Counted from the stretch's first letter, positions 625 through 36,285 are shown. The stretch: DNA of 37,485 bases from an uncultured Candidatus Saccharibacteria bacterium (GCA_964586395.1 CAZPGP010000002.1:26556-64040), one strand, 5' to 3'. Numbers and translations: made by a program. The notes: generated by a model not told the origin, from the sequence alone.

Positions 625-652
625 ATTTTAACAGAATAAATTCAAAAAGCAA
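625..652 (-). promoter_or_regulatory. sigma70-type promoter firing into region 1-615
   Basis: Minus strand TTGCTT-16-TAAAAT with extended -10 TG, in an AT-rich patch. Confidence 0.5.
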
Positions 653-669
653 ATACTTTGTGCCACACC

Positions 670-703
670 GGTGGCGGGCAGGAACGAATCCCTACCCGCC
701 ACC
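670..703 (-). terminator. 15-bp GC hairpin with UUCG loop, 3' of 734..1069
   Basis: Minus strand GGTGGCGGGTAGGGA-TTCG-TTCCTGCCCGCCACC. Two G-U pairs form only on the minus strand. Confidence 0.7.
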
Positions 704-733
704 AGCTACAGTGTCACGCCCTCAGGAGGGGCG

Positions 734-1069
734 CTACGCTGCGAGTGCGCGGATGGCCGCGATGGTCGGCGCCGGGAGCGGCTTCGAGCCCAGAGGCCCG
801 AACGCCCTCCCGGCACTCACGCCGAAGCTGGCGCTGTCCGGCACGGGGTTGCCCAGCGCCCTGCCGGTGCTCAGAGCGGCGCGCTGGTGCGTGTAGACCG
901 CCTTGACTACGAGCTGGCCGTCGTCCTTGGCGGCCCAGCACAGCAGGTTGCTGATGCCGAACGTCTCGTCACGGTCGGTGAGGATCTGGGTGACCAGACT
1001 CACGACCCCCAGTTCGACGAGGCGTGCGTGATGCTCACGTGCATTCGCAGGAATGCTGTCGTGTGCCAT
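734..1069 (-). CDS. hypothetical protein, high-GC orphan class (111 aa)
   Basis: ORF 734..1096 trimmed to ATG 1069 with GAGGGG SD 9 nt upstream. High GC3, own promoter TTGCAA-16-TAGAAT at ~1120-1147, 3' hairpin 670-703. Confidence 0.7.
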   Translation of the reverse strand: MAHDSIPANAREHHARLVELGVVSLVTQILTDRDETFGISNLLCWAAKDDGQLVVKAVYTHQRAALSTGRALGNPVPDSASFGVSAGRAFGPLGSKPLPAPTIAAIRALAA

Positions 1070-1167
1070 CTTGAGAATCCCCTCAGTAGTAGTCACCCTC
1101 TTCTGGCGACAACTCTATAATTCTACATATTCGTGCGTTTATTGCAAGTATAAGTTCATGTCTACAG

Positions 1168-2463: not shown

Positions 2464-2483
2464 ACGTTACGCCCATTATACAG

Positions 2484-2521
2484 AAAACCGCCCCAGATTG
2501 ACAGGGGCGGTTTTCTATTTT
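2484..2521. terminator. intrinsic terminator after the LysM/CHAP gene
   Basis: AAAACCGCCCC-loop-GGGGCGGTTTT with A/T tracts on both sides. Confidence 0.75.
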
Positions 2522-2533
2522 ACTAATATGCTA

Positions 2534-3706: not shown

Positions 3707-3898
3707 TATCGCTTATTCCTAAGCGAAATTTACTTCCGTTCGTGTCTTTCTTCCAGACATGTTTGTGTTGGAACAGAGATGTGTCGACCGTGAGTTGCTA
3801 GGTTATATTATAGCATCTCGTGCGACACGACTTGGGAAGAACACTGGTACGTAAAGCGCTTATGTTGGGGCGTTTTACCCACCCGAGCGTACATAGAT

Positions 3899-3927
3899 AT
3901 TGTACCTAAGCTTGACATAAGTGTCAA
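3899..3927 (-). promoter_or_regulatory. consensus promoter with a palindrome overlapping the -35
   Basis: Minus strand TTGACA-17-TACAAT. TTGACA-N4-TGTCAA at 3912-3927. A second TGcTATAAT lies at ~3807-3815. Confidence 0.7.
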
Positions 3928-3953
3928 TACGTTACAATGTATTCCTACCCCTG

Positions 3954-8663: not shown

Positions 8664-8954
8664 GTGCGTACCTCTCAGACCTCTATCACCCCCCTCCCCG
8701 AGAAGCTCATGGGCCTCCCGGAGATGCTGTCGGTGCTGGGCCTCATGCTCGGCGCGATCGTCATCACCGGAACCCTCTACCAGAGCTGGGGTTGGTCCCA
8801 GAAGACCGTCGCCCTCGTCATCGTGGGCACGATCTTCGGCGGATTCGCCCTCTGGGCGATCATCCGCACCAACCTCGTCCGCCGCGGACTCATCCACCCC
8901 CTCCAGATCGGCCCCAGCTTGGAGGCCGAAGAAGCCCGTCATGGACGGCGATAG
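8664..8954 (+). CDS. small 2-TM membrane protein, high-GC orphan class
   Basis: AAGGAG SD at 8651-8656, GTG start, very high GC3, two hydrophobic segments, 3' hairpins. Confidence 0.75.
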   Translation: MRTSQTSITPLPEKLMGLPEMLSVLGLMLGAIVITGTLYQSWGWSQKTVALVIVGTIFGGFALWAIIRTNLVRRGLIHPLQIGPSLEAEEARHGRR

Positions 8955-8955
8955 A

Positions 8956-9037
8956 GGACCCACGAGGTCCCGGACAGCCAGGTGGCGACCACGGAATGTT
9001 TCCGTGCGTCGCCCCTGGCTTCGTCATTTGAACTTAT
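8956..9037 (+). terminator. two GC hairpins followed by TGAACTTAT
   Basis: GGACC-cacga-GGTCC, then AGCCAGG.GGCGAC.CACGGAA-tgt-TTCCGTG.GTCGCC.CCTGGCT. Motif at 9029-9037. Confidence 0.65.
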
Positions 9038-9122: not shown

Positions 9123-9545
9123 ATGGCTGGTTCACTGGCAGCGCTTCTCATCTCCGTACTCCTGGCGCTCTTCGGCGGCTCGGAGAAGGAGGGCAAGAAG
9201 CGCAGCATGGGTCTGGCGGTCATCGCGTCGGCGATCGGCGCCATCTCGCTCCTGATCGCCTTCCCGGAGATCCTGACGATCGGCGGTGAACCCGTCGTCA
9301 TCTGGATCCCGGTGGTCGTCGGGCTGATCGGTGTCATCATCTGCCTGGTGGCCAAGGGCGCCAAGAACCTCACCGGGCTGATCCTGCTGGTGGGCGTCAC
9401 GATGGTCGCCTGGGCGCTGTTCCGCTGGCTGCCGACGGGACCCGCAGCCTTTCAGTTCCTCGGTGAACACATGGGTCTGGCCGGCAAGGAAGCCGGAACG
9501 GGCTTCAGCGGCTGGTGGGACATCCTGTTCGGCAGCAAGAAGTGA
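9123..9545 (+). CDS. 4-TM membrane protein, high-GC orphan class
   Basis: AAGGA SD, near-total G/C at third positions, four hydrophobic helices, TATAAT at ~9065-9070 followed by a 5' hairpin. Confidence 0.8.
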   Translation: MAGSLAALLISVLLALFGGSEKEGKKRSMGLAVIASAIGAISLLIAFPEILTIGGEPVVIWIPVVVGLIGVIICLVAKGAKNLTGLILLVGVTMVAWALFRWLPTGPAAFQFLGEHMGLAGKEAGTGFSGWWDILFGSKK

Positions 9546-9546
9546 G

Positions 9547-9612
9547 TGCCGGGCTGCGCTGCGTCCTCAGGGACCTGCGCAGCCCGCCTCACGGCAACAC
9601 TTTTGAAATTAT
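9547..9612 (+). terminator. bulged GC hairpin followed by TGAAATTAT
   Basis: GGGCTGCGC..GTCC-TCAG-GGAC..GCGCAGCCC at 9551-9585. Motif at 9604-9612. Confidence 0.65.
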
Positions 9613-9613: not shown

Positions 9614-11506
9614 TTAGACTAATGCAGCCTTGATACGGCGCACGCCAGATGAGCTGGCTTCTTCCTTCAGAATCTTGAATCGCTTGCCGTCTTCGGCGAG
9701 CTGAAGGGTGTGGTCAACGTGTGGACCACCGCAGATCTCGAAGCTGAATGGTTTTTCGGCGTCATCGGCGATCATCTTGTAGACTTTCACGCGGTCGCCA
9801 TAACGGTCGCCAAACTGACCCAGCGCGCCCTTTTCGTCGATAGCAACTTTGGTTGGGTATTCCTCAAAGCTAACTTTGAGGTCTTTCTGAATCTGGTCAT
9901 TGACGATTTCTTCAACCTGCTTGATCTGTTCTGGTGTTACCTTTTCTGGGTGACTGAAGTCAAAGCGCAGGCGTTCCTCGGTGATGTTGCTGCCACGCTG
10001 GACAACGTGTCCGCCCAGGACGTCGCGGAGGGCTTGGTACATCAGGTGAGTTGCGGTGTGATACTTCTTGTGTTGGAGGGTTTGGCCACCGAGGCCGCCC
10101 TTGAAGGTGCCTTTAGCGGCAGTTTGCGAACGCGCGCGCTGTTCGGCCATCTTGGCGTCGAACTCTTCGCGCCAGGTCTCGCTGACCTTAATGCCCTGCA
10201 AAGCAGCTTCTTCGACGCTGAGCTCAACTGGGAAGCCGTAGGTGTCATAAAGCGTGAAGACATTCTCGCCGTTCAGCTCGCTACCCTCACCCATTTTGCG
10301 GAGCTCGTTCACGCCTTTGCGGAGTGTCTGACGAAAGACTTTCTCTTCGCGCGTCAGGACCTCAATAACTTCATCACGGCGAGTGGCGAATTCAGGATAG
10401 TCCGCCTCGTACAGGCTGACAACAACAGGAACAACCTCTTGCAGGAAGTTCTGCTCGATGCCCAGCTCAAACGCAAAGCGAATCGCACGGCGCAGCAAGC
10501 GACGCATGACGTAACCCTGCTCTTTGTTGCTTGGTTTAATGCCGTCAACGGCCAGGAAAGTCGCGCCGCGGAGGTGGTCAGTAATGACGCGCATAGCGTT
10601 GGTGTGGCTCTCGTACTTCTTGCCGCTGAGCTCTTGGAGCTTCTCGACAATTGGCCACAGCAGGCTAATGCGATAGACGTCAGGGCTGTCGATAGCTGCA
10701 GCAGCGATGCGCTCTAGGCCAGAGCCGTGGTCGATGTTCGGCGCAGCGAGGGCTTCAAACTTTCCGTCGCCGACTTTCTTATAGCCCATGAAGACGTTGT
10801 TGCCGATCTCAAAGAACCTGGCTGAGTCGCTGGCTGGGTGTGGCTTGCCGTACTTTTCTTCGTCGTGGAATTCCTCGCCGAAGTCAAAGAACATCTCTGA
10901 GTCGGGACCACATGGGTCGCCCACGAGAGTGCCTTCCTCGTTGCCGTTGCGGCTCCACCAGTTTTCTTTGCCATCGTACAGGAAGATGCGGCCGCCCTGC
11001 ATGCCGAGTTTGTCGCCATTTTCTGCCGAGCCAAGCTCGACGACAGGGGCTTCAACGCCTCGCTTGCTGAATTCAGCCTGCCAGAGTTCAATGGCGTCGT
11101 TGTCGCGAGGTATATTGTACTTTTCGTTACCAATGTAGCAGCTGACGTAAACACGATTTGGATCGAGGCCTACGACGTCGAAGAGGAATTCCGCAATCCA
11201 GCTAATCTGTTCACTCTTAAAGTAATCGCCCAAGCTCCAGTTACCAAGCATCTCGAATGTTGTGGTGTGCTTGTCATCACCGATGTCGTCGATATCCTGC
11301 GCGCGCAGACACATCTGACTGTTAGCGATGCGCTTGCCGTCTTGATGTTCCTCACCCAAAAGGTATGGGATCATCGGCTGCATGCCCGAGCCAGTAAAGA
11401 GGGTCGTGGGGTCGCCCTGAGGAACCATTGGGGCGCTCGGAACGACAACGTGATTGCGTTCTTTGTAAAAGTCTAGGTATGCTTTGCGAATTTCTTGGGC
11501 GTTCAT
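9614..11506 (-). CDS. alaS: alanine--tRNA ligase, short form (630 aa, no C-Ala domain)
   Basis: DPTTLFTGSGMQP, HTTTFEMLGNWSLGDYFK, GSGLERI, GYVMRRLLRRA, editing HTATHL and EICGGPHV, ends GVRRIKA. Start ATG 11506. Confidence 0.96.
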   Translation of the reverse strand: MNAQEIRKAYLDFYKERNHVVVPSAPMVPQGDPTTLFTGSGMQPMIPYLLGEEHQDGKRIANSQMCLRAQDIDDIGDDKHTTTFEMLGNWSLGDYFKSEQISWIAEFLFDVVGLDPNRVYVSCYIGNEKYNIPRDNDAIELWQAEFSKRGVEAPVVELGSAENGDKLGMQGGRIFLYDGKENWWSRNGNEEGTLVGDPCGPDSEMFFDFGEEFHDEEKYGKPHPASDSARFFEIGNNVFMGYKKVGDGKFEALAAPNIDHGSGLERIAAAAIDSPDVYRISLLWPIVEKLQELSGKKYESHTNAMRVITDHLRGATFLAVDGIKPSNKEQGYVMRRLLRRAIRFAFELGIEQNFLQEVVPVVVSLYEADYPEFATRRDEVIEVLTREEKVFRQTLRKGVNELRKMGEGSELNGENVFTLYDTYGFPVELSVEEAALQGIKVSETWREEFDAKMAEQRARSQTAAKGTFKGGLGGQTLQHKKYHTATHLMYQALRDVLGGHVVQRGSNITEERLRFDFSHPEKVTPEQIKQVEEIVNDQIQKDLKVSFEEYPTKVAIDEKGALGQFGDRYGDRVKVYKMIADDAEKPFSFEICGGPHVDHTLQLAEDGKRFKILKEEASSSGVRRIKAALV

Positions 11507-11535
11507 ATCTGTAATAGTATAGCAAACAGAGGTAG

Positions 11536-11598
11536 ATAATTTCAATTTGTTGCGCGGTGAACGCCGGCGGGCCGAGAAGGCCCAGGCCGGCGTTCACC
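11536..11598 (-). terminator. bulged GC hairpin followed by TGAAATTAT
   Basis: GGTGAACGCCGGC..GGGCC-loop-GGCCC.GCCGGCGTTCACC at ~11556-11598. Motif on minus strand at 11544-11536. Confidence 0.65.
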
Positions 11599-11616
11599 AT
11601 CACACACCTGCGGCGA

Positions 11617-12369
11617 CTAGCAGCTTCCCGAGCTGCCGCCATCGCCACCGCCGGAGCTGCCGCCGCCATCGCCGCTGTTGAAGAACATGAAGCTGCCGCC
11701 AGAGCTGGAGCTTCTGCCTCCGTAGCCGCCACGACCACGGCCACGACGACCTCCGCCTCCGGAGAATGCGGCGGCCACGAGGATGACAGCAACGATGGCA
11801 ACGATGATGACGAGCGACCAGACCCAGGCCGGCACGCTTTCGCTCTCGGTGGCCGGGTTCTGGTTGCCCTTGATGACCTCGGACGAGTTGTGCAGCCCGG
11901 TCACGATGGCTTCTGCGTAGTGCCCCTTCTGGTACGGGTCACGCATGGAACCGCGGATCGAATCGACCTCGGACTCCATCGTGCTGGCGAAGTTCTTGCC
12001 GTAGAAGATGGCGTCGTGATGTTCGAGCGTGACGAGCACGACGACGAGGTTCGGCTTGATGTGGCCGTCCCCGCCCCAGCTCGGGCAGGTCTTGATCTGC
12101 GTGGCCTCGTAGGCATCCAGACTCCCGCCTGGCGGGTCGTCGAACATGCGAACCCGCACATCCACGCCCTGGGAGTCCAGCTCCTTGACGGCCGGGTCGA
12201 TCGTGGTGTCGCCCTTCAGAACCTGCCCGGCTGTGAGGTCCAGGACCTGCTGGTTGCAGTCCACGACCGACGTCTCGGGGTCCGCAAAGGCAGACGGGGT
12301 CGTCAGGCCGAGGCCGACAACGACGAAGGACATCGCGACAAGCGAACGTCTTAACATTCGGAATGGCAC
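11617..12369 (-). CDS. TPM-domain membrane protein with Gly-rich tail, high-GC orphan class
   Basis: Signal peptide (..PSAFA-DP), TPM-like core (NLVVVLVTLEHHDAIFYG..YAEAIVTGL), C-terminal TM, GGGSSGGGDGG tail, GAAGGGG SD. Confidence 0.75.
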   Translation of the reverse strand: MPFRMLRRSLVAMSFVVVGLGLTTPSAFADPETSVVDCNQQVLDLTAGQVLKGDTTIDPAVKELDSQGVDVRVRMFDDPPGGSLDAYEATQIKTCPSWGGDGHIKPNLVVVLVTLEHHDAIFYGKNFASTMESEVDSIRGSMRDPYQKGHYAEAIVTGLHNSSEVIKGNQNPATESESVPAWVWSLVIIVAIVAVILVAAAFSGGGGRRGRGRGGYGGRSSSSGGSFMFFNSGDGGGSSGGGDGGSSGSC

Positions 12370-14512: not shown

Positions 14513-15661
14513 TTAACGCAGCCGACGCACGCTTTCAATGATAATTTCAGCGGCTTTCGTCACCTCTTGTGGCGTCGTGGGTTCGCCAACCGTCAGACGC
14601 AGGCTACCGCCCAGAAGGTCATCGCTAAAACCACAGGCCTTAAGCACGTGCGATGCAGTCTGCTTATTGGCAGCACAGGCAGAGCCAGTTGCGGCCATCA
14701 CGCCCTGCTCGTCCAATAGCATCACCAAGCGCTCGCCGTCCACACCCGACCACGAGAGATGGAGGCTATTGGGCAAACGTTTCTTCAGATTACCGTTCAC
14801 GATCGTGTCAGGAAGACCCTCGACGATCCGTCGCTCGAGCTCGTCGCGCAGTGCGGCATATTTGGCGACCGCTTGCTTGCGATCGGTCTGCGCAATGTCC
14901 AGCGCAGCCGCAAAGCCGATAATGCCCGGTACGTTCTCGGTGCCAGATCGCAGACCACCCTCTTGGCCGCCACCGCTAATAGGCGAATCGATACGCGTGC
15001 CGGCCTTCACATACAGTAGACCAGACTGCTTGGGGCCGTAGATCTTGGCGCCATTGAGCGTCACGAGGTCAAAGCCGAGGCGCGAAGCATGCAAATCCAG
15101 GTAGCCCGCCGCTTGACTCGCGTCGGTATGGAAGTAAATTGGTAGGTCAATCCCCAACTTCTGGCGGGCAGCGCGGACCTTTTGCAGTAACTGCGAGATC
15201 TGACCCACCGGCTGGATGGTGCCGACCTCATTGTTAGCGTAACTGACACTAACCAATACCGTGTTGTCATCGATGAGACTTTCGAAAGCCCCCAAGTCGA
15301 TCGTCCCGTTTGGCAAAACCGGGGCGACTTTGTGATTGTAACGGCCGGCCGTAACTAAAACAGAGTCGTGCTCGGTAGCCAGCACGACGATATTTGCCTC
15401 CGGAAAAACGTTCATCACGCCATGAATTGCGATGTTCGTCGCCTCTGTTGCGCCAGCCGTAAAGACGACCTCGCTCGGGCGAGCGCCGAGCCAATACGCG
15501 ACTCGCGCACGAGCTTCGTTCAGATCCTGACGGACCTGGCGTCCGGCCATGTACGGACTAGAGGGATTAAAGAAATCCTCCTCGAGGTACGGCTGCATAG
15601 CTAGTTGTACACGCGGATCACACGGCGTTGCGGCCGCGTAGTCCAGATAAATACTGTTCAC
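14513..15661 (-). CDS. iscS: cysteine desulfurase (IscS/NifS family)
   Basis: YLDYAAATP, NPSS, NNEVGTIQP, HTDASQA, KIYGPK, RSGTEN, TGSAC. Confidence 0.92.
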   Translation of the reverse strand: MNSIYLDYAAATPCDPRVQLAMQPYLEEDFFNPSSPYMAGRQVRQDLNEARARVAYWLGARPSEVVFTAGATEATNIAIHGVMNVFPEANIVVLATEHDSVLVTAGRYNHKVAPVLPNGTIDLGAFESLIDDNTVLVSVSYANNEVGTIQPVGQISQLLQKVRAARQKLGIDLPIYFHTDASQAAGYLDLHASRLGFDLVTLNGAKIYGPKQSGLLYVKAGTRIDSPISGGGQEGGLRSGTENVPGIIGFAAALDIAQTDRKQAVAKYAALRDELERRIVEGLPDTIVNGNLKKRLPNSLHLSWSGVDGERLVMLLDEQGVMAATGSACAANKQTASHVLKACGFSDDLLGGSLRLTVGEPTTPQEVTKAAEIIIESVRRLR

Positions 15662-18919: not shown

Positions 18920-19507
18920 ATGCGCAAAGCAATCCAACGCAGCCCCTTGTTCATTGGGGCATTTCTGTTGGTCGTTGATTCCATGATGGAAATCTACGGC
19001 ATGTGGGAGGCCACTCCCACTCCAGCAGAGCCGGCGCCGTTCATGATGTGGCTGTTCGCAGCTGCAATCACGGCCGCGATGATCTTCGCTGAGCCGCTGA
19101 TCGCCAAGCTCACCGGGGTCAAGACGGTCGTCAAGACCGAAGAGATCTGGCGTGAGGTTGACCTCAGCATTCTCGACCGCTGGGAGACGGTGCAGCATGA
19201 GTTCGGGATCGACCCGGACGAGGCCCGCGCCGAGATCACCCAGTTCAGCCACGTGCTGGACCAGATCGAGCTGGCCGAAGCCGCGCGGCAAGGCTCTTCC
19301 GACACGGCAGTCTGCGAGGCGCTCGACGCACGAGTCACGATTCTCATGCGTGAGACCCTCGGACCGCTCGCCGCGGAACTGGCCTACCTCAAGTCTGAGG
19401 AAGGCCGAATCCACACCACCGTCACCGACACCTTCATCACCACCACCCAACAACGACAGCACGAACAAGATGTGGCAGCAGAGCTTCTGGCCCGCACGCC
19501 CATCTGA
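18920..19507 (+). CDS. 2-TM protein with helical cytoplasmic domain, high-GC orphan class
   Basis: Promoter TTGTGT-17-TATAAT at ~18858-18886, GAAGGG SD, high GC3, hairpin ~19522-19546, TGAAATTAT 19555-19563. Confidence 0.75.
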   Translation: MRKAIQRSPLFIGAFLLVVDSMMEIYGMWEATPTPAEPAPFMMWLFAAAITAAMIFAEPLIAKLTGVKTVVKTEEIWREVDLSILDRWETVQHEFGIDPDEARAEITQFSHVLDQIELAEAARQGSSDTAVCEALDARVTILMRETLGPLAAELAYLKSEEGRIHTTVTDTFITTTQQRQHEQDVAAELLARTPI

Positions 19508-19624
19508 TGAACGTCGTCGTAGGGGCGCCCGAAACACGGGCGCCCCGGCAACTCTGAAATTATAACTTAGCTTTTGATCAAATTTCCGATACTCGCCCCA
19601 GCCTGTGCAGCCGGGGCGAGTACA

Positions 19625-21937: not shown

Positions 21938-22693
21938 CTAGCCTATCAGTCGCGCCAACAACGCAAATCGCCCCTCGGGTTCACCATTGCGAACTGCGCG
22001 GTAATGCGAATAATACTTATCACTCGTAGCCGTATTCACCGGCGACACCTCAATATGCTCAGGCAAAACACCCGCCTCTATAAATCGCTGACGATTATAG
22101 CCCGGCAAATCAACGCCGTAACCTTTGTCGGTTTTGTGGAGAAAATCTTTCCACACCGGGTCGTCAGCCTGCGAAACCGTATCAAACACGTACGATTCTG
22201 CCTTAATGGCCGGACTCAAATAAACTCGTAGGTCGGGCGCGGACGAACGAAATGTATGCTGCAAATATTGCACCGTCTTGGTTGCCAACTCAGCTGTCGT
22301 ACTCTGCCAACCCAAGTGCACTACCGCCAAAACATTCTGGACTGGATCGTGGATAGCCACGGCGTTGCAGTCTGCAACCGGTAACAGCAAGCCAATATTC
22401 GGCACGTTCGTGACCAATGCGTCAGCGGCGATACGCTCATTGGGATCGGCCACACCCCTTCCTTCATTGCTCGTCACATTAACTATCGCGTCCCATACCG
22501 CCTGATCGGCGCCAACGTCCATTACAACAACGTGCGAGGAATCGAGGTCAACGGCCTTTGCGAGCGTACTGATGACTCGTTGAGTCTCCTCAAGCGGACC
22601 CCACTCTGGCTTGGTGTTGCCATCGGCCTTACTAGACACGGCGACGCGCAGCTTTTGGCCGTCAAAGATAGTTGGTTGGTCGGAGCTAATCAT
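21938..22693 (-). CDS. pgeF: PgeF/YfiH purine nucleoside phosphorylase (laccase-domain) family protein
   Basis: ADALVT, VADCNAV, VVHLGW, SPAI, DLPGYN, YYSHYR, GRF. Confidence 0.85.
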   Translation of the reverse strand: MISSDQPTIFDGQKLRVAVSSKADGNTKPEWGPLEETQRVISTLAKAVDLDSSHVVVMDVGADQAVWDAIVNVTSNEGRGVADPNERIAADALVTNVPNIGLLLPVADCNAVAIHDPVQNVLAVVHLGWQSTTAELATKTVQYLQHTFRSSAPDLRVYLSPAIKAESYVFDTVSQADDPVWKDFLHKTDKGYGVDLPGYNRQRFIEAGVLPEHIEVSPVNTATSDKYYSHYRAVRNGEPEGRFALLARLIG

Positions 22694-22711
22694 AATTTCA
22701 TTGTAGCAGGG

Positions 22712-25156: not shown

Positions 25157-25627
25157 CTAATCCTTCTTATATAATTTCAAAGCTCGATCCACCGTCATAC
25201 TCCGATGAGACGGCAAATGCTTCAGCGCAAACCATGCCACGTCCAACATCTCTAGCCGATGCCGTGCGGCAATATGCGCCGGCTGCTTCGGGACCTCAGC
25301 AACAAAACAATCCACCACGAAGGGCGCGTTACTGTCGCCATTTTCGAACTCACCCAACGGCTTACATTTACGCTCATCAATTGACACACCCGTTTCCTCG
25401 AACGTCTCACGCAGCGCAGCGACCTTTGGCTTCTCGCGGCGGCGGATTCCGCCACCAGGCAAGCTCCAGCGCTGATGACCAAACCAACTCCGCACTAGCA
25501 GCACTTCTCCGCGCTCGTTGACGACCATAACGCGTACACGGTGCTTTCCCCTCATATATACGCGCAGAAGTGGCGAGGCGGCGCCATGCGCCAATTTTCC
25601 GAGCCGAGCATAAGACTTCTTGACCAT
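25157..25627 (-). CDS. NUDIX hydrolase
   Basis: Nudix box LPGGGIRRREKPKVAALRETFEETG. Start ATG 25627, 8 nt after TACAAT. Confidence 0.9.
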   Translation of the reverse strand: MVKKSYARLGKLAHGAASPLLRVYMRGKHRVRVMVVNERGEVLLVRSWFGHQRWSLPGGGIRRREKPKVAALRETFEETGVSIDERKCKPLGEFENGDSNAPFVVDCFVAEVPKQPAHIAARHRLEMLDVAWFALKHLPSHRSMTVDRALKLYKKD

Positions 25628-26635: not shown

Positions 26636-26848
26636 GTGACACGCCCCTCGGCGAAGAATCCCAGCACGGGCAGGTTCTGGCTGCTCATGCTCGTCGGCGG
26701 AGCTCTCAGCCTCTTGGGCGTCTACTTGATGCTCCAGAGCTACAGCTCTCACCCCACCAAGTTCTACTTCGGAGTCGCGTTCGCGGTCATCGGCGTCATC
26801 GCCGGATTCGTCGGCGCATTCCGAGCCAACAACGCCAGACGCCGCTAG
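26636..26848 (+). CDS. small 2-TM protein, high-GC orphan class
   Basis: GGAGG SD and GTG start, two TM helices, basic tail, TTGACA at 26561. Confidence 0.75.
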   Translation: MTRPSAKNPSTGRFWLLMLVGGALSLLGVYLMLQSYSSHPTKFYFGVAFAVIGVIAGFVGAFRANNARRR

Positions 26849-26862: not shown

Positions 26863-26960
26863 AAAGCGACCTCCCCGTGGGTCATACCCACAAACCCTCG
26901 CGACACGACTTCGGTCGGACGTCGCGAGGGGGGTCGCTTTAACATTGGATTTGAAATTAT
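26863..26960 (+). other. three-way-junction RNA structure followed by TGAAATTAT
   Basis: Outer stem AAAGCGACC/GGTCGCTTT. Inner GTGGGT-cat-ACCCAC and CCCTCGCGAC..CGAC-TTCG-GTCG..GTCGCGAGGG. Motif at 26952-26960. Confidence 0.6.
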
Positions 26961-28545: not shown

Positions 28546-30261
28546 ATGGCCGACAATACTCGGCCACCTGCCCAACCTGGCAAGAGACGAGGAAAGCGGG
28601 CCCCGGGATCCGGTTGGTTTCCGGGTCGCAAAAAAGGGCCGTTCCTACCGAAGCTCCCTCGACACTCCGAGACCGCCGTAATGGCCAGGGTGAAACCCGG
28701 CGAATACACGCGGGGTCGTCACCTTGGGTGGCGATTCTTCGTTGCATTCGTGTCTCGGTGGCGTTACGCCGTGTCCTTCTCGCTCGTGCTGGCTGTCTTG
28801 GCAGGACTTGTCGGTTTCGGCATGATCGCGCTGCGAGACGTCAACATCGACAAGGACAGGCCCCCGACGCAAGAAGCGCCCACGCTCGATGAACTCAACA
28901 AGTCCATCGCGCTGGGGCAGCGCTACGTGAAGGCACTGTACAAGCCCCTACCCGGGGAAATGGCAGTCCAGAGCGAAGCATCGGGAGTCCCGCTCAAAGT
29001 CCACTTCACCCGCGATGATACGTGGGCGCTGCTGGGCGAAGAGAAGGAAGCCTGTCCGAATGACGGGGAAGACTGTGAGCCCACAACGCTCATCGACCCC
29101 GTCAACACCGGCAACAACGACGAGCAGTACGACGTGACGTTCAGCAACAACCGGACGCGCGGTGCATTCCGCGCTACGGTCAACATCAATTGGGCCTTCA
29201 GGCCTGATCAGTTCCAGATCCGGCTGCTGCCGAAGAACGTGTCTGAGCCGGTGGAAATCTGGCTCGACGACAAGCAGCTCACCGACTTCTCCCCCACCAA
29301 AAGGGACGAGTCGACCAGCGCCCTCGACACGAGCCAGCAGGCTCAGATGCGCATGCTCCGGTTCACCATCCGGCATGCGACTCAAGAGGCGTACATGTAC
29401 TGGTTGACGTACGGCGACGACCCCAAAAGGGCAGCCGCGTTGGCCAGCTTCCTGGAGCGCAACCGCTACACGCCCGGTTACGACATGCGGGCGCCGCTGT
29501 TCCAGGCGGGTGATCAGTCGGAAAGCTTGCCCTTCAACATGAGCAAGCTGCCCGATGAACTGCCGTTCGACGCCGGCGCGTACCCGGACTGCGACCACGT
29601 CGCTGAGTCCAGCGAGTTCGCATACGCCTACCGGAGCAAGGTGTGCCTCTTCAGGGACACCTACCTCAACGTCGGCGCACGCGACCCGTTCCTGCAAGCG
29701 TGGCAAGCGCTCACAACGCTGGAGAGAGAAAAGAACCCCAACCACGAACTGCCCAACGGCGGCGAGTGGCTTCAGGGGGGCACTCCGGCGGAGATCGCGT
29801 ACCACCTGCAAGGTCAGTGGAACCGTACCGGCTACGGAGTTCCAAAATGCACGCCCTTCTCGTGCAACGAGATGAGCGGCATCAGGACGTCCGTGTTCGG
29901 CGCGCTCCAAACCGACCTGGGGTATCGCTACGGCAACGCCAGTTCCAGGAAGTTCGCCGACGCTGCGGCTGCGATGATCGTCAAAGCTCAAGTCGGCACC
30001 GATGGCAAAGTCCGCATGGCGGATGGCACGTACTACCGACCAAGCCAGGTGGGCGCGTACCTCGCTGCCTGGGACACGGCCGACGCACGATTCGTCGTCC
30101 CGTCTGCACCGAAGTTGGTGGCGGGTATCGCATACTTCGTCACCGGCGAGGAGCCCATCCCCCCGGAGTACCTGGGGATCGTACCGAGCAACTCGGAGAC
30201 GTCCTTCGACGCGCTGGGGTTCCTGCACAAGTACCGCTGCGAGAAGTACAAAGTCTGCTGA
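28546..30261 (+). CDS. large single-TM extracellular Cys-containing hypothetical protein, high-GC orphan class
   Basis: GGGAGG SD, basic cytoplasmic N-terminus, TM near aa 75-97, paired cysteines, high GC3. Confidence 0.8.
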   Translation: MADNTRPPAQPGKRRGKRAPGSGWFPGRKKGPFLPKLPRHSETAVMARVKPGEYTRGRHLGWRFFVAFVSRWRYAVSFSLVLAVLAGLVGFGMIALRDVNIDKDRPPTQEAPTLDELNKSIALGQRYVKALYKPLPGEMAVQSEASGVPLKVHFTRDDTWALLGEEKEACPNDGEDCEPTTLIDPVNTGNNDEQYDVTFSNNRTRGAFRATVNINWAFRPDQFQIRLLPKNVSEPVEIWLDDKQLTDFSPTKRDESTSALDTSQQAQMRMLRFTIRHATQEAYMYWLTYGDDPKRAAALASFLERNRYTPGYDMRAPLFQAGDQSESLPFNMSKLPDELPFDAGAYPDCDHVAESSEFAYAYRSKVCLFRDTYLNVGARDPFLQAWQALTTLEREKNPNHELPNGGEWLQGGTPAEIAYHLQGQWNRTGYGVPKCTPFSCNEMSGIRTSVFGALQTDLGYRYGNASSRKFADAAAAMIVKAQVGTDGKVRMADGTYYRPSQVGAYLAAWDTADARFVVPSAPKLVAGIAYFVTGEEPIPPEYLGIVPSNSETSFDALGFLHKYRCEKYKVC

Positions 30262-30281: not shown

Positions 30282-30352
30282 AACGAAGTGGTGAGCGGCT
30301 CCGTCTTCACAGACGAGCCCTCGCCATTTCGTGAACACCCTACTGAACTTAT
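30282..30352 (+). terminator. bulged hairpin with UCAC tetraloop followed by TGAACTTAT
   Basis: ACGAAGTGGTGAG.GGCTC.CGTCT-TCAC-AGACG.AGCC.CTCGCCATTTCGT with two G-U pairs. Motif at 30344-30352. Confidence 0.65.
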
Positions 30353-32505
30353 ATTCTTTCGAGAGGCGCAAACTCAACGTTGAGCTTCTTGACGCCACGA
30401 CCAGCAAAACTGATTGATACAGTTGAACCATCAATATCGACAATCTGCCCTTGCCCAAAGACCTTGTGGCGAACCATATCTCCAACTTCGAGCTCCATAT
30501 CTTCTGGAACGTAACGGGGCTCACCTGTGTTGACCGGCGCAAACGGCTCAGGTGTGCTATTCATGCCATATCCGAATGCTGGCGCCGCCTGCTCGCGTGC
30601 GCTACCGTCAATCTCCGACAGGAAGCGTGATGGTGGATTGTACTGGACGCTTCCGTACAGCATGCGTCCCGAGGCGTGCGTCAAATATAACTCCTCGCGG
30701 GCGCGGGTCATGCCTACATAACAGAGGCGACGCTCTTCTTCCAACTCGTCCTGATCAAAGAAAGCGCGACTGTGAGGGAAGATGCTCTCTTCGCATCCAA
30801 TCATAAATACAACTGGGAATTCCAAGCCCTTTGCGGCGTGGAGCGTCATTAGCGTCACTGAATCCGCCGCATCGTCCACAGAATCAAGGTCAGATATCAG
30901 CGCAACTTCCTCCAGGAATCCTGCCAGACCTAATGCCTCGTATTCCTTCGCAACCGAAATAAGTTCGCGAACGTTCTGTTGGCGCTCTTCGGCTTGGAGA
31001 CTGCCGTCGTCCAGGTGTTGCTCATATGCGGTGCGACGAATCACAACGTCTATGAGCTCAGGCAAACCGATCTTCTCTACCTGGTTGCTCATGTCTTGCA
31101 GCAATACGCCCAGTACACCAAATGCTGCGCGGGCCTTTGGCGTCAGCGTCGTGCAAAGGTCGATCTGCAACATCGCATCGACTAGCGACAAACCACTCGT
31201 GGCCTGCCAGTCCAGGAATCGCTGCACGCTCACCGCGCCCAGCCCGCGAGCCGGCGTGTTCACAATCCGCAGAAAGCTTGCGCGGTCAGCAGGCTGGTAC
31301 AGCAAGCGCAGATACGCTAGCAAGTCCTTGATCTCCTTGCGGTCATAGAACCGCACGCCGCCCACAATGCGATACGGCACACCGTAGCGGATAAACGCCT
31401 CTTCCATCGCTCGCGACTGCGCGTTGGTGCGATATAGAATGGCGTATTCACGATAACGACGAGCCTTCATGTCGACCGCCGTCTTGATACGACTCACGAC
31501 AAATTCGCCTTCGTGCGCCTCACTCTGCACGCCGACGATCTGGACTGGGCTGCCGTCGTTCGCCTTGGTCCACAGCTTCTTATCGGAGCGATTGGTGTTT
31601 TTGGTGATAACTTTGTGGGCTGCGTCCAAGATATTCTTGGTGCTACGGTAGTTTTGCTCCAATTTGACGACCAGAGCGTTCGGATAGTCACGTTCAAAGT
31701 TCAGGATATTCTTGAAGTCGGCACCGCGCCAACTATAGATGCTCTGCCAGTCATCACCCACTACGCAGATGTTGTGGTCATCGTTCACGAGCATCTTCAC
31801 GAGTTTGTACTGAGCTGCGTTGGTATCCTGATACTCGTCGATCATGACGTAATGGAATTGACGTCGCCACTTGGCGCGAATTTCTGGAACGGTAGAAAGC
31901 ATACGAACCGTCTCGCTAATAAGATCGTCGAAGTCTAATGCTGCGGCGTCCTTGCGAATACGCTCGTACACAGCGTAGACATCGGCCGCGACCTGTTGTT
32001 GCGGCATGCGGGCGACTTCTTTGTATGCGCTGGGCGTCATAAGTTCGTTCTTTGCTGCGCTGATCATGTGCGAGATAGCGTTGGGGCTGTGTTGTTTTTC
32101 GGCAATATGGAGCTCGCGCATAGCGGCTTTGACCGCAGCTTGGCGATCGGATTCATCAAAGATGACGTAGTTTTTGGGCACGCCAATAGACTCACCGTCA
32201 AAACGCAGCAACCGTACACACATACTGTGGAACGTACCCATGAAAGGCATGAATCCGCGGTCGCTACCTTCGCGTCCGAGCAGCCGGCCCAGGCGTTCAC
32301 GCATCTCCTTTGCCGCCTTATTGGTGAAAGTTACGGCCAGAATATTCTCTGGTCGAGTATTCCTGTCAGCAATCAAATAAGCAATGCGGTGCGTCAAAGT
32401 CTTGGTCTTGCCAGAGCCAGCTCCAGCCAAAATCAGCACAGGGCCGTCGGTTCGTTCGGCAGCTTTGCGCTGCTCTTCATTTAGTTCACTCAGTAAATCA
32501 GTCAT
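30349..32505 (-). CDS. pcrA: UvrD/PcrA superfamily 1 DNA helicase
   Basis: AGAGSGKT, TFTNKAA, DEYQDTN, VGDDWQSIYSWRGA, LEQNYRST, TLHAAKGLEF, EEERRLCYVGMTRA, C-terminal Tudor-like domain. Confidence 0.96.
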   Translation of the reverse strand: MTDLLSELNEEQRKAAERTDGPVLILAGAGSGKTKTLTHRIAYLIADRNTRPENILAVTFTNKAAKEMRERLGRLLGREGSDRGFMPFMGTFHSMCVRLLRFDGESIGVPKNYVIFDESDRQAAVKAAMRELHIAEKQHSPNAISHMISAAKNELMTPSAYKEVARMPQQQVAADVYAVYERIRKDAAALDFDDLISETVRMLSTVPEIRAKWRRQFHYVMIDEYQDTNAAQYKLVKMLVNDDHNICVVGDDWQSIYSWRGADFKNILNFERDYPNALVVKLEQNYRSTKNILDAAHKVITKNTNRSDKKLWTKANDGSPVQIVGVQSEAHEGEFVVSRIKTAVDMKARRYREYAILYRTNAQSRAMEEAFIRYGVPYRIVGGVRFYDRKEIKDLLAYLRLLYQPADRASFLRIVNTPARGLGAVSVQRFLDWQATSGLSLVDAMLQIDLCTTLTPKARAAFGVLGVLLQDMSNQVEKIGLPELIDVVIRRTAYEQHLDDGSLQAEERQQNVRELISVAKEYEALGLAGFLEEVALISDLDSVDDAADSVTLMTLHAAKGLEFPVVFMIGCEESIFPHSRAFFDQDELEEERRLCYVGMTRAREELYLTHASGRMLYGSVQYNPPSRFLSEIDGSAREQAAPAFGYGMNSTPEPFAPVNTGEPRYVPEDMELEVGDMVRHKVFGQGQIVDIDGSTVSISFAGRGVKKLNVEFAPLERI

Positions 32506-32618
32506 CTTATCTATTTTAGCCTAAACTAGCCCTGATGAGGGTTGTAATTTATATATTGCTAAAAGTGCATTAATATGATATAAGTAATTAGTCAGTTTTC
32601 CTCCGATTGGAGTTTGCC

Positions 32619-32867
32619 ATGCGCAGAAGCCGTCAAGTCGGGACCATGTTGATCGCAGCAGCAGTGCTCGTCATCGTGGGCCTGGACACCTACTTCGACT
32701 GGAAGTCCGGCGCGTTGAAGGAGCTCGCGGCCAAGTACCCGGCGCTCGTCCCCGACAACCCGTGGCTGGCCTGGGGGTACGCCGCTATCGCGGTCTCCCT
32801 GATCGGGCTCGCCATCTGGTGGCCGTACCGTCGGTTCACGCGGCGCAACCGCCGCAACAACCACTGA
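32619..32867 (+). CDS. small 2-TM protein, high-GC orphan class
   Basis: Promoter TTGCTA-17-TATAAG, GGAG SD, two TM, Arg-rich tail, hairpin ~32884-32920, CGAACTTAT 32928-32936. Confidence 0.75.
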   Translation: MRRSRQVGTMLIAAAVLVIVGLDTYFDWKSGALKELAAKYPALVPDNPWLAWGYAAIAVSLIGLAIWWPYRRFTRRNRRNNH

Positions 32868-32936
32868 CGGGCAAGAAAGCGACCGGAGGGCCTTGAGCCG
32901 CACTATGGCTCGGCCCTCCGCGAGCAACGAACTTAT

Positions 32937-34112
32937 CTATTTCTGTACAAAGTAAACGTAGGCAAAGTAGCCTGCGACCGCGATCAACGCCAACGCAACA
33001 AGCGCAACAAAAATCTTGCCCCACATGCTTCCGCCGCCGCGGTGTTCATGGCTGGTCGATTCCACGAGTGGCGGGTGGTATTCCTTGGTGTCAAATACAG
33101 GGCGGGTCGTCTTGTCCGTAGTTTTTGGCTCCGGTCGGTATTGGTCAGGGATGGCCATCATGGCGGCGCCATGGAGATCGGGCTTGGCAGGCTCTTTGTC
33201 GTCAGACTTTTCGCCTTCCTTGGGAGCAAGCGGTGCTTTCTGCTTTTCCTTCTCAGGCTCTTCGAATGTGCCGTTGGCTTGCGGCGTCAGCTCGTCGGCG
33301 GAGTCTTCGGTTTTTTCCTCAACAGGTTTTGGAGGTTCTGGCTTTGGCTCATCTGCGGGTTTTGGTCTGAAATTAGAGAATGCACCAAGCGGCCGCTTCT
33401 CTACCTTAGCTTCGGCCAGGAATGGCGATACTGGCTCTGTCGATTCAGGTTCAGCGTCGGCTGTCTTGGCTGGCTTGCTCGGAACATCGTTGAAATCAAG
33501 CGGGTCCGGCCAAGCAACATCTTCGCCTGACTTCTTGTCATCTTCAGCTTGCTCTGGTGCTGGTTGCGACTCGGCTGGCTTAGGCTCTGCCGGGGTTTCG
33601 GGCCTTGGCTCAGCAACAGGCGTCGATGTTTTTGGCGCAATGTCGAGATCGAGTTTCAGACTACTCAGATCAGGAAGGCCAGGCTCTTCTGGCTCAGCCT
33701 TTGTTGCTGCCACTACCGGCACCTCAGGGATGATCTCATCACGCTTACTAACGGGCTGAACAGATACGCCCACACGAGTAGCCGACTTGCGTGGAGCGGG
33801 AGGTACGATGTCCATGAATGATCCGCGACGGGACCGAGTATCGCCTAGACGGTGCTTGGTAGGGGTGCTCGCCGACCTAATAGCAGGGGCTTCGGACGGG
33901 GCGGTCGGCGTTGAGGCGACAGGTTCTGGCTTTGGCTCGTTAGCAACCGGCTCCGCGATAACCGGCGCGGACTTAGCTTCGACAGGCACGGATGACGGCG
34001 TTGTGGTGTTTACCTTGGGCGCAGGTGACTGAGCCGATGCTGGCTCGCCTGGCACCTTGGTCGCGAGGTTAGTCACGGCTTTGTCTAGTTCTTCAAAATC
34101 AAAATCATTCAT
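32937..34112 (-). CDS. Pro/Glu-rich disordered protein with C-terminal TM anchor
   Basis: 391 aa low-complexity sequence with short motifs (DFEELDKAV, SPFLAEAKVEKRPLG, FDTKEYH) and a terminal hydrophobic helix. Confidence 0.75.
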   Translation of the reverse strand: MNDFDFEELDKAVTNLATKVPGEPASAQSPAPKVNTTTPSSVPVEAKSAPVIAEPVANEPKPEPVASTPTAPSEAPAIRSASTPTKHRLGDTRSRRGSFMDIVPPAPRKSATRVGVSVQPVSKRDEIIPEVPVVAATKAEPEEPGLPDLSSLKLDLDIAPKTSTPVAEPRPETPAEPKPAESQPAPEQAEDDKKSGEDVAWPDPLDFNDVPSKPAKTADAEPESTEPVSPFLAEAKVEKRPLGAFSNFRPKPADEPKPEPPKPVEEKTEDSADELTPQANGTFEEPEKEKQKAPLAPKEGEKSDDKEPAKPDLHGAAMMAIPDQYRPEPKTTDKTTRPVFDTKEYHPPLVESTSHEHRGGGSMWGKIFVALVALALIAVAGYFAYVYFVQK

Positions 34113-34118
34113 CTAAAT

Positions 34119-34895
34119 TCAATTATCCTTTGCCGTTTCTAAACCATGGGCGCTGTCGATGATGGCGCTAAAGACCTTGGCCTTCAGGCTTGCACCGCCA
34201 ACCAAAAGTCCGTCAATGCCTTCGGCACTCACAAATGAGCCCGAGTTCGAAGTGTCGACGCTACCCCCGTAAAGCACGCGAACCGTTTCGGCGGCTTTAT
34301 CGCCAAAGAGCGCGCGAACGTGTTTGCGAATGAGCTTCACAACCTTTACGGCGTCAGCAACAACAGCGGATTCGCCGGTGCCGATAGCCCAGACTGGCTC
34401 GTAGGCAATCACCACGTCTTGAATCTCGTCACTACTGATATTGCGAAGTCCGGCAACAACTTGGTCGTGGATGACATGCGCTGTCTCACCTTCGTTCCGT
34501 TCGTGCTTGGTCTCGCCAACACACAGAATCGGCTTCATGCCATTACGAAGTACTGCTTGAACTTTGTTGGCGACATCCTTGTTGGTCTCGCCAAAGATAT
34601 GACGTCGCTCTGAGTGGCCGACGATAACATAGCTCACCAGACCTCGCATCTGCGTAGCCGAGACCTCGCCAGTGAACGCACCTGCGTCTTCGAAGTAACA
34701 GTTCTGAGCGCCGAGTCGGAACTTGCGATGATTTACCTGGAGCGACAGAGACTGCAAGCCCAGAAGGTTCGGACACAGAACGACATCAACATCGCGATAG
34801 CTCGGCGCCTGCTCCTCGAGCTTGTGCAAATAGAGACTCGCCTGACCGGTCGTAAAATGCATCTTCCAGTTACCGACAATCAGTTTTTTGGACAT
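34119..34895 (-). CDS. tpiA: triosephosphate isomerase
   Basis: GNWKMH, GAFTGEVS, GHSERR, AYEPVWAIGTG, LYGGSV, LVGGASL. Confidence 0.97.
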   Translation of the reverse strand: MSKKLIVGNWKMHFTTGQASLYLHKLEEQAPSYRDVDVVLCPNLLGLQSLSLQVNHRKFRLGAQNCYFEDAGAFTGEVSATQMRGLVSYVIVGHSERRHIFGETNKDVANKVQAVLRNGMKPILCVGETKHERNEGETAHVIHDQVVAGLRNISSDEIQDVVIAYEPVWAIGTGESAVVADAVKVVKLIRKHVRALFGDKAAETVRVLYGGSVDTSNSGSFVSAEGIDGLLVGGASLKAKVFSAIIDSAHGLETAKDN

Positions 34896-34971
34896 CAACG
34901 CTGCTCACCCGATTTATTCTTATGCTTTAATCCTACTATGTTTTGGCGTCGCTGACTAGATGGCGGCCTCT

Positions 34972-36201
34972 TTAGCTGTCCATGAGCGCCTCGACGCCCG
35001 GAAGTCGTTCGCCTGCCATCAGGTCGAGACTGGCGCTGCCGCCTGTCGAAACGTGACCAAAACTGCCACCCTTCTTGGGGTCCCAGTGCAAAGCAAAGTC
35101 AACAGTGTCGCCGCCGCCCACAATAGTCATGGCCTCCGCTTGGCGTTTTGCCATCGCATCGGCCAGATAGGCAGAGCCACTGCTAAACGCCTCCTTCTCG
35201 GTCACGCCCATCGTGCCGCTCCAGACGATCGTGCCAGCGTTGGCCAATAATTCCACGGCGTGGCTGATGGTGCGCGTGCCAATATCGACGATATATTCGT
35301 CTGGAGTTACCTCCGGCACACCCACAACCGTTCGACGCTGCTGCTCGCTCTCGATGTCGGTAGTCACCGCAACATCGACAGGCAGAAAAATAAATTCATC
35401 CACCGAACGCTTGCCCGAGACCTTACTCAGTGCGCGAGCATAAATATGCTGCAATGTTTCGGACTCATCATCGTCGTGCTTGCTCTTGCCGATCTCGTGG
35501 CCCTTGTACTGCAAAAAGGTGTTTGCCAGGGCGCCGCCGATAATAATCTGGTCGGCCATATCCACGAAACGCTCCAGGACTTTGATCTTGTCGCTTACTT
35601 TTGCTCCGCCCACGATAGCAACCATTGGCCGCTTCGGATTCTCCATCGCCGCCATGATAGTCGTGACTTCACGCTGAAGTAGAAGTCCAGAAACGCTCGG
35701 CAAATGATGCGTAATTGCCTCTGTACTGGCGTGCGCGCGGTGCACCACGCCAAAACCGTCCTGCACAAAATACTTCGCGCCCGTATCGGTCATAAGCCGC
35801 TGCGCAAAGGCGTCGTCGTTGGCCTCTTCCTCGGGGTGGAAACGCAAATTCTCCAAAAGCACTACCTGGCCGCTGCCCATATTCTTAACCGCCTGGACAA
35901 CGCGGTCGCCCACGCATTCTGGCACAAAGGCCACGTGCTCACCCAGTAGATCACTGAGACGTTCAGCCACAGGCGCCAAGCTAAGCCCTGGATTTGGCTG
36001 ACCTTCTGGTCGCCCAAGGTGTGAACAGATCACAATCTGACAGCCGCGTTGGCGAAGTTCCTGTATTGTCGGCAATGATTGTGAAATACGGTAATCGTCG
36101 GCGACTTTCCCGTTCTCGAGCGGCACGTTGTAGTCAGCTCTCAGCAAAACGCGCTGACCATCCAAAGGCACATCCAAAATTGTTTTCTTGTAAAATGACA
36201 T
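34972..36201 (-). CDS. pgk: phosphoglycerate kinase
   Basis: RADYNVP, SHLGRP, LLENLRF, HRAHAS, GGAKVSDK, VGGGD, STGGSASL. Confidence 0.97.
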   Translation of the reverse strand: MSFYKKTILDVPLDGQRVLLRADYNVPLENGKVADDYRISQSLPTIQELRQRGCQIVICSHLGRPEGQPNPGLSLAPVAERLSDLLGEHVAFVPECVGDRVVQAVKNMGSGQVVLLENLRFHPEEEANDDAFAQRLMTDTGAKYFVQDGFGVVHRAHASTEAITHHLPSVSGLLLQREVTTIMAAMENPKRPMVAIVGGAKVSDKIKVLERFVDMADQIIIGGALANTFLQYKGHEIGKSKHDDDESETLQHIYARALSKVSGKRSVDEFIFLPVDVAVTTDIESEQQRRTVVGVPEVTPDEYIVDIGTRTISHAVELLANAGTIVWSGTMGVTEKEAFSSGSAYLADAMAKRQAEAMTIVGGGDTVDFALHWDPKKGGSFGHVSTGGSASLDLMAGERLPGVEALMDS

Positions 36202-36285
36202 CGATTTTATTTAAGCATAAGTTCGATGTTTTCTCACTACAAAGAATAGACACGTTGGCTCTTTGGACAACCCTGTCTGTCGAGA

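Follow-up and report, generated by a model that had tools for sequence, protein, structure and literature searches.

A lineage-restricted nine-nucleotide word at gene 3′ ends of a Candidatus Saccharibacteria genome, tentatively read as an RNA 3′-end processing or insulation signal

A stretch of 37,485 nucleotides (nt) from an uncultured Candidatus Saccharibacteria bacterium (GCA_964586395.1 CAZPGP010000002.1:26556-64040), referred to below as the window, carries copies of one nine-letter word, YGAAHTTAT, at the 3′ ends of genes, and raises the question of what such a word does there. A first-pass annotation of the window had offered three answers, namely a lineage-specific terminator, a recognition site for an RNase or another protein, and a recombination core. 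The ending and maturation of transcripts are almost undescribed in bacteria of the Candidate Phyla Radiation (CPR), whose genomes are tiny, and searches for Rho, RNase E/G and RNase Z detected none of them in the genomes examined for each. The genome of the window (G000; 1.0 Mb, 45 contigs, 54% GC, 94% complete) was analyzed together with 30 relatives, giving a set of 31 genomes in which the unpublished genome G002 is counted, with no claim made on it alone. Among the relatives, G001 belongs to the same genus as G000 and was fetched whole for comparison, G014 belongs to another genus of the same family (f1), and G007 to another genus. Genes were called with our own Markov model combined with a rule on GC content at third codon positions (GC3), and not with a standard annotator.

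In the window, 16 exact copies of YGAAHTTAT were found, against a mean of 0.96 and a maximum of 4 in 100 dinucleotide shuffles, none of which (0/100) reached 16; the first-pass annotation had roughly estimated about one chance copy. All the exact copies listed by the first-pass annotation were recovered at their places and on their strands, and the sequences that it gave for three variants (21358, 25697-25689 and 19570-19562) were likewise confirmed. A total of 11 of the 16 copies are intergenic, and five lie within genes (14541, 25171, 30959, 32039 and 35390), of which only the copy at 25171 had been listed, as the last codons of a NUDIX gene. The five in-gene copies resemble coding chance, the status of 14541 being less settled, and the copy at 25171 is probably explained by coding, since the NUDIX coding sequence is conserved in G014.

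Across G000, 156 copies of the broad form YGAAHTTAT were detected, 59 of them in genes by our own calls, and 40 of the 47 in-gene sense copies occupy a single frame, xxY-GAA-HTT-ATx, which encodes Glu-[Leu/Ile/Phe]-[Ile/Met]. The scan against an AT-matched intergenic background, proposed with the original observation, gave 87 copies in 178.5 kb of intergenic DNA compared with 8 to 12 expected from analytic Markov models of orders 1 to 4, which were trained on the same AT-richer intergenic DNA. Homopolymers aside, no 9-mers in intergenic DNA exceed expectation as strongly as the two main forms of the motif (43 copies vs. 1.6 expected and 24 vs. 1.8), and the core is sharp, TGAA[C>A>>T]TTAT occurring 82 times vs. 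6.1 expected, with single substitutions reaching at most about 2.5 times expectation. The true core is TGAA[C/A]TTAT, hereafter the strict motif, and position counts revealed no information content beyond the 9-mer. In 582 confident genes, a codon-shuffle control gave 8 strict motifs vs. 3.8 expected on the sense strand and 1 vs. 3.1 on the antisense strand, which is neither real enrichment nor avoidance, and contig ends showed no real excess either (21 vs. 13.6 expected in G001, 4 vs. 4.6 in G000).

The motif is restricted to a lineage and patchy within it. Counts of the motif and of the reversed word were 88 vs. 5 in G000, 86 vs. 3 in G001 and 103 vs. 11 in G014, the last showing the same motif anatomy as G000 though of another genus; mild enrichment was observed in G007, G017, G029 and G012, and none in most of the 30 relatives. 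A full-text literature search for the 9-mer, with supplements outside the search, returned unrelated matches only, and a search of the literature on Saccharibacteria transcription start sites and promoters returned only an unrelated paper, with no description of the motif found. The Rfam scan of the window gave nothing at gathering score.

The orientation of the motif follows the gene upstream, as first noticed in the window, with co-orientation at 75 of 92 sites in G000 (binomial p = 7e-10), and the downstream gene is co-oriented at 47 of these sites and opposed at 45. The hairpin and the switch from GC-rich to AT-rich DNA were borne out without gene calls, the median GC being 0.633 upstream and an ordinary 0.546 downstream. 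A strong fold (≤ −20 kcal/mol) was observed in the 55 nt upstream of 53 of 90 sites, but downstream of only 4 of 90 and in 28 of 290 random intergenic 55-mers. The last paired base precedes the motif by a median of 4 nt (range 0-18), over a spacer that is A/C-rich and G-poor (41% A, 25% T), and the distance from stop codon to motif is mostly 33-93 nt. The hairpin sequences all differ between sites, and the motif lies outside the stem. They carry no T-tract, and the motif itself, with 4 T in 9 bases, does not supply the U-tract of an intrinsic terminator; true terminators with stem and T-tract are also present in G000 and lie downstream of the motif at 8 of the 92 sites.

Of the 45 sites that face a convergent gene, 22 have the stop codon of that gene overlapping or touching the motif (offsets −4 to +2), and in at least two of them (C11 24210 and C3 38283) the motif supplies the stop codon of the neighbor, whose last codons differ from those in G001. 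Convergent gene units can each carry a copy of their own, as observed at C21 9940/9961 in G000 and at C5 48445/48456 and C12 13009/13018 in G014. In co-oriented cases, extended −10 promoters begin 2-27 nt after the motif at no fixed spacing.

Behind tRNA genes the register is exact. In 4 of 37 G000 tRNAs (Lys-ttt, Val-gac, Pro-ggg and Cys-gca) the exact motif starts at the base right after CCA, where 0.009 cases were expected (P = 3e-10), near-forms stand behind further tRNAs (Met, Glu at +4, Gln and His), and a canonical terminator composed of A-tract, stem and T-tract often lies downstream of the motif. The same CCA register was observed in G001 (2 of 28 tRNAs exact, 5 with one mismatch), in G014 (3 of 30 loci) and in G006 (tRNA-Ala, Leu and Gln), while G010 and G017 harbor motif forms that overlap CCA. 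Of the G006 copies, the one behind tRNA-Ala is located in the 16S-23S spacer, with tRNA-Ile starting 37 nt further on and 23S downstream. Tails of the hairpin type, too, are preceded by CCA more often than by any other triplet (8 of 61 in G000, 12 of 53 in G001), and CCA alone is enriched, no displaced tRNA 3′ fragment longer than CCA having been seen before the motif. In 120 other genomes, CCA followed by the motif occurred 48 times vs. 49 for the reversed control; order-wide, only G000 (10 vs. 0) and G006 (5 vs. 0) stand out.

Upstream-unit orientation, the register at tRNA 3′ ends, the CCA bias, the separate copies of convergent units, the place before true terminators and the copy in the rRNA spacer suggest that the word is transcribed and read in RNA, where a structured 3′ region ends. 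That it is transcribed without being itself the stop is indicated by the canonical terminators that come after it, behind tRNAs and at 8 of 92 sites, and by the G006 copy between tRNA-Ala and tRNA-Ile. We tentatively read the motif as an RNA 3′-end processing or insulation signal and not as a terminator, an account that is quite possible though short of probable. The original description of a real, lineage-restricted, oriented word at a hairpin and GC-to-AT boundary stands; of its three explanations the terminator and the recombination core fare badly, and the recognition site for an RNase or protein, still putative, fits best.

Under this reading, TGAA[C/A]TTAT would act in cis at the level of the transcript, where it reads UGAAMUUAU, and would mark the end of the useful RNA of a unit. 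An endonuclease or RNA-binding factor would recognize the word beside a structured 3′ end and cut at or near its 5′ edge, which would free a tRNA with its CCA end or leave an mRNA ending in a protective hairpin, and the detached read-through RNA could be degraded by the 5′-to-3′ exonuclease RNase J. Such a signal would matter where, as in this lineage, neither Rho nor RNase E/G nor RNase Z is detectable, and it might shield the downstream promoter or convergent gene. Rho, whose absence had been suggested as a check, was not found in G000, at its 94% completeness, or in the 30 relatives (0/31); RNase E/G was likewise found in 0/31 genomes and RNase Z was not found in G000. RNase Y and RNase J were both detected in every genome of the set (31/31). 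In the parts of the RNase Y literature consulted, the enzyme prefers a G before the cut and an A/U-rich stretch (PMC4608709), and the motif is compatible with an RNase Y-type cut after G in an A/U-rich single strand near structure, the consensus known from those parts being weak. A wider formulation, possible but rather doubtful, is that a Saccharimonadales (CPR) family uses a sequence-specified 3′-end signal, composed of a structured end and UGAAMUUAU, at which a cut would mature tRNA CCA ends, finish GC-rich accessory mRNAs and hand read-through to RNase J, as a counterpart of cleavage-dependent 3′-end formation and the ‘torpedo’ of eukaryotes. A sharp, oriented 9-mer that marks tRNA trailers and, among accessory genes, about 40% of those highest in GC3 offers a concrete handle on 3′ ends in the CPR, and cultivable Saccharibacteria can be transformed. 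Two candidates for a reading factor were discarded: pairing with a guide RNA, as the pattern of variants shows no wobble-type tolerance, and MazF/PemK, which was found in 0 of 19 family-f1 genomes searched.

Several observations weigh against a processing signal. The motif stands behind 39% of GC3-rich genes and 1.2% of ordinary ones, a link that a general processing signal does not predict, and coding sense strands show no avoidance of it (8 vs. 3.8 expected). No clear peak of conservation was found, the identity of the motif being 0.854 vs. 0.79-0.86 for its flanks at 22 orthologous sites of G000 and G001; this 22-site comparison gives no statistical support for a motif held constant between diverging flanks. 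The hairpin is missing at some sites, for instance after obgE, rsmA and pyk, and tRNA-linked sites have been gained or lost between G000 and G001. RNase Y and RNase J occur throughout the order and the motif is enriched in few genera, so the enzymes cannot explain its lineage restriction. We know of no nuclease with a sharp 9-nt specificity. The consensus of RNase Y is weak as far as the consulted parts of two sources describe it (bioRxiv 10.1101/2023.03.12.532304; PMC4608709).

The link with GC3-rich genes is one ground for a different account, in which the word would be a DNA-level cassette signature, that is, a junction or core left or used when GC-rich modules insert, swap or delete, either an attachment-type core or the one-sided end of a mobile element. 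The motif follows 30 of 77 genes with GC3 ≥0.82, 12 of 76 at 0.75-0.82 and 8 of 650 below 0.68, the median GC3 of ordinary genes being 0.65. Genes with GC3 ≥0.75 number 153 of 917 called genes in G000 (about 17%) and form single-gene modules between housekeeping genes, and GC-rich segments number 263 and cover 197 kb. A module consists of its own promoter and Shine-Dalgarno site, a GC3-rich open reading frame (ORF), a GC-rich stem-loop without U-tract, and the motif last; no common head sequence was found among modules. The motif marks a large pool of such fast-turnover units and may aid the annotation of gene ends and accessory genes.

The turnover of modules between the two species of the genus speaks partly for this account. 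For 52 intergenic G000 sites with an anchored downstream flank, the G001 counterpart is exact in 27 cases, carries one mismatch in 7 and has no motif in 18; a module missing from G001 is usually missing together with its motif, and homology can restart right past the motif (C7 50431 and C5 30203). Non-homologous modules carry the motif at the same junction within 2 nt (comparison sites 9, 14, 31, 52 and 71), some empty sites keep it (C2 75188, C8 6513 and C6 35330), and, of the 32 two-flank insertions that G000 shows against G001, 13 bear an exact copy at one of their ends, in many cases at the breakpoint itself; in the other direction at least 43 insertions were counted in G001, N-gap artefacts of G000 included. 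Neighboring motif pairs within 700 nt are direct in 7 cases and inverted in 1, and tRNA 3′ ends are classical integration sites. An example of turnover is G000:C7:50431-51591, where two tandem modules, absent in G001, have near-identical terminator hairpins, each with the motif; an outward extended −10 box at the head of this insert precedes the downstream gene, whose G001 version has no promoter of its own.

Other evidence makes a cassette signature unlikely. Searches for tyrosine and serine recombinases, with DDE, Y1 and IS110-type transposases not searched for, found one tyrosine enzyme each in G000 (the single Phage_integrase match) and G014, of a type common to 29 of 31 genomes, and serine recombinases in 20 of 31 genomes, G000 and G014 not among them; no reverse transcriptase was found. 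The hairpins all differ with the motif outside them, an inverse copy upstream is missing (1 of 263 GC-rich segments is flanked), and the more than 60 scattered single sites cannot all have been pre-existing 9-mer targets, since chance offers only about 8-12 intergenic targets. The modules flanking alaS are older than the split of the genera, the 3′ module being kept with hairpin and motif in G007 and the 5′ module being present in G014 without the motif that it carries in G000. The direct repeats of 7-14 bp that flank insertions are promoter pieces and are compatible with deletion as well as insertion. As to the origin of the modules, Protein Atlas matches scored below 0.8 and were uninformative, and two module proteins had no close relatives among viral contigs. 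Were a DNA-level junction nevertheless true, it would represent an unrecognized route of gene gain in a lineage with almost no recombinases.

Little credence is also given to a polymerase stop element, by which the motif would be part of a non-canonical terminator, a pause site or the site of a polar-roadblock protein, enabling hairpins without U-tract to work in a Rho-less cell. The missing Rho, the hairpins without T-tract, the median of 4 nt from structure to motif and the place at the end of the unit, before the next promoter or a convergent stop codon, are what such an element would show. However, canonical terminators follow the motif behind tRNAs, at comparison site 14 of G001 the motif comes after a complete T-tract terminator, the G006 copy stands in an rRNA operon spacer upstream of tRNA-Ile and 23S, the gap between hairpin and motif varies from 0 to 18 nt, and 4 of the 9 motif bases are T. 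With ordinary terminators present in the same genome, the lineage-specific terminator proposed at first fits these contexts poorly, and the RNA-level signal is retained as the preferred reading.

Very improbable is a word resembling an uptake sequence, which biased uptake or recombination of DNA would propagate in a lineage capable of natural transformation and which would hitch-hike with accessory modules. The 9-mer is sharp, with single substitutions barely enriched, lineage-restricted and patchy, near terminator-like hairpins and linked to variable genes; but it follows the orientation of the upstream unit strongly (75 vs. 17), has a low density of about 0.09 per kb, is not enriched in genes (658 kb of confident genes hold 9 strict motifs, with about 7 expected), keeps an exact CCA register at tRNAs and occurs in two copies at convergent units. 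That the motif is a promoter element or operator serving the gene downstream, or acts from the opposite strand as an antisense promoter, is hardly probable at all: the reverse complement of the motif resembles a −10 hexamer in our own reading and extended −10 promoters do begin downstream in co-oriented cases, but the spacing of 2-27 nt and the position counts show no −10 signal at a fixed offset, the downstream gene is convergent at 45 of 92 sites, with its stop codon touching the motif in 22, and a terminator follows the motif behind tRNAs. A −35 promoter element was ruled out by the same variable spacing and many convergent downstream genes.

A comparison with known systems reveals partial likenesses only. 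Intrinsic (Rho-independent) terminators include a hairpin-only, ‘I-shaped’ type described in high-GC bacteria, and the sites studied here share with intrinsic terminators a GC-rich, gene-oriented stem-loop 30-90 nt past the stop codon at a unit boundary, but have no U-tract and add a fixed 9-mer, which also occurs before and after T-tract terminators and in an rRNA spacer. In repetitive extragenic palindromes and bacterial interspersed mosaic elements (REP/BIME), the palindrome itself is the repeated sequence; the motif resembles them in its dozens of extragenic, species-restricted, hairpin-linked copies at gene 3′ ends, whereas here only the adjoining non-palindromic 9-mer is common to the sites. 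Integron cassettes have attC sites, an integrase and arrays. The modules are likewise small single-gene units of odd composition with a variable hairpin and a short conserved boundary word, but no integron-type integrase, array or paired inverse core was found, and the modules have promoters of their own. Phage ‘morons’ are similarly self-contained promoter-gene-terminator units between housekeeping genes that turn over between close relatives, but a shared 9-nt tail word is not part of that concept. For an island that targets tRNA genes, no displaced tRNA 3′ copy beyond CCA and no extra integrase were found.

On the side of RNA maturation, RNase Y/E-type enzymes process tRNA 3′ trailers and operon mRNAs endonucleolytically, with cuts after G in A/U-rich single strands beside a structure (PMC4608709; bioRxiv 10.1101/2023.03.12.532304). 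The putative cut at the motif would be of this kind, and RNase Y is present here; the known RNase Y sites have a weak consensus, unlike the sharp word confined to few genera. In eukaryotes, histone mRNA 3′ ends carry a stem-loop and a downstream element, and a ‘torpedo’ exonuclease acts after cleavage. The stem-loop with a short word behind it, and the availability of a 5′-to-3′ exonuclease of the beta-CASP type (RNase J), look similar, but neither a guide RNA nor a cleavage factor is known in the present case, and the likeness is one of analogy only.

The features of the window are given below with folds computed by RNAfold; the gene names obgE, rsmA, NUDIX and pyk used in the first-pass annotation agree with Pfam.

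636-644, minus strand: motif TGAATTTAT at the tail of the GC-rich module gene 734-1096 (minus), 1 nt past the last paired base; the upstream 70 nt fold at −38.5 kcal/mol, with an upstream GC of 0.73.
667-706, minus strand: GC-rich hairpin without T-tract ahead of the motif at 644-636, from the RNAfold dot-bracket.
1150-1158, minus strand: motif TGAACTTAT, 9 nt past the obgE stop codon (1168), with no strong hairpin; the next module comes after it.
9029-9037, plus strand: motif TGAACTTAT after the ORF 8664-8954 (plus) and a hairpin at 8973-9025 (−39.3 kcal/mol), followed by the promoter region of the module gene 9123-9545.
9542-9592, plus strand: GC-rich hairpin without T-tract ahead of the motif at 9604 (−38.1 kcal/mol).
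9604-9612, plus strand: motif TGAAATTAT at the tail of the module gene 9123-9545 (plus), 1 nt from the convergent alaS stop codon (9614); module, hairpin and motif are kept in G007, and G001 has a different hairpin with the motif at the same junction.
11536-11544, minus strand: motif TGAAATTAT at the tail of the module gene 11617-12369 (minus), 11 nt upstream of the alaS extended −10 box; module and motif are both absent in G001, and G014 has the module without the motif.
11551-11604, minus strand: GC-rich hairpin ahead of the motif at 11544-11536 (−44.5 kcal/mol).
14541-14549, minus strand: copy of TGAAATTAT within the gene 14513-15661, 28 nt before its stop codon.
19555-19563, plus strand: motif TGAAATTAT at the tail of the gene 18920-19507 (plus), past a hairpin at 19519-19549 (−32.7 kcal/mol).
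22692-22700, minus strand: motif TGAAATTAT, 11 nt past the rsmA stop codon, overlapping the ATG of the next gene (21938-22693) after the extended −10 box of that gene; G001 has a one-mismatch variant there, behind an inserted 1.18-kb GC-rich gene.
25171-25179, minus strand: copy of TGAAATTAT within the last NUDIX codons, the coding sequence being conserved in G014.
26952-26960, plus strand: motif TGAAATTAT after the small GC-rich ORF 26636-26848 (plus) and a hairpin at 26886-26934.
30283-30332, plus strand: GC-rich hairpin ahead of the motif at 30344 (−36.2 kcal/mol).
30344-30352, plus strand: motif TGAACTTAT at the tail of the gene 28546-30261 (plus), its TTA serving, on the opposite strand, as the stop codon for the convergent gene 30349-32505, which encodes a UvrD/PcrA-type helicase; conserved in G001.
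32928-32936, plus strand: motif CGAACTTAT after the ORF 32646-32867 (plus) and a hairpin at 32884-32920, abutting the stop codon of the convergent gene 32937-34112.
36217-36225, minus strand: motif CGAACTTAT, 60 nt past the pyk stop codon, its last base opening the pgk extended −10 box (pgk ATG 36201); G001 has a two-mismatch variant.

The insert of G001 between rsmA and the next gene (G001:C129:3296-4473, 1.18 kb) is flanked by 7-bp direct repeats, and its gene apparently encodes a membrane protein, as judged by reading the sequence without a family search. The corresponding position of G000 (window 22708-22711) shows 5 bp duplicated in tandem, which may be a footprint. The alaS gene of the window (9614-11545) is short, at 643 amino acids, and its Pfam matches cover the catalytic and the second additional domain only.

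Promoters in the window resemble extended −10 boxes, with TGn in front of the hexamer, and stand 6-11 nt ahead of the start codon, as at 11506-11535 (alaS), 22693-22709 and 36201-36218 (pgk), and this placement suggests that many mRNAs may be leaderless or nearly so. Often overlapping extended −10 boxes in G000 is an inverted repeat, TAACAGAT-N6-8-ATCTGTTA, which recurs in intergenic DNA, for example at C2:9020-9035, C10:9502-9516 and C22:12104-12124; its 8-mer was counted 34 times vs. 4 expected, and the repeat looks like the operator of a global regulator. The highest-ranking intergenic 9-mers include TGCTATACT and TGTTACAAT.

Runs of at least 9 G or C are common in G000 (64 nine-base windows per strand; for example G000:C16:15355-15600), and some G-run/C-run hairpins adjoin copies of the motif. 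An element resembling a type III hammerhead was observed at G000:C7:35353-35411 (L228:354-412), with 34 bits, below the Rfam gathering score of 48.5, and an E-value of about 1e-4; its core is intact, either side of stem III carries a single inserted base, and a motif copy begins at the very base where the element ends. The element is kept in both species, the G001 ortholog lying at L137:270-329.

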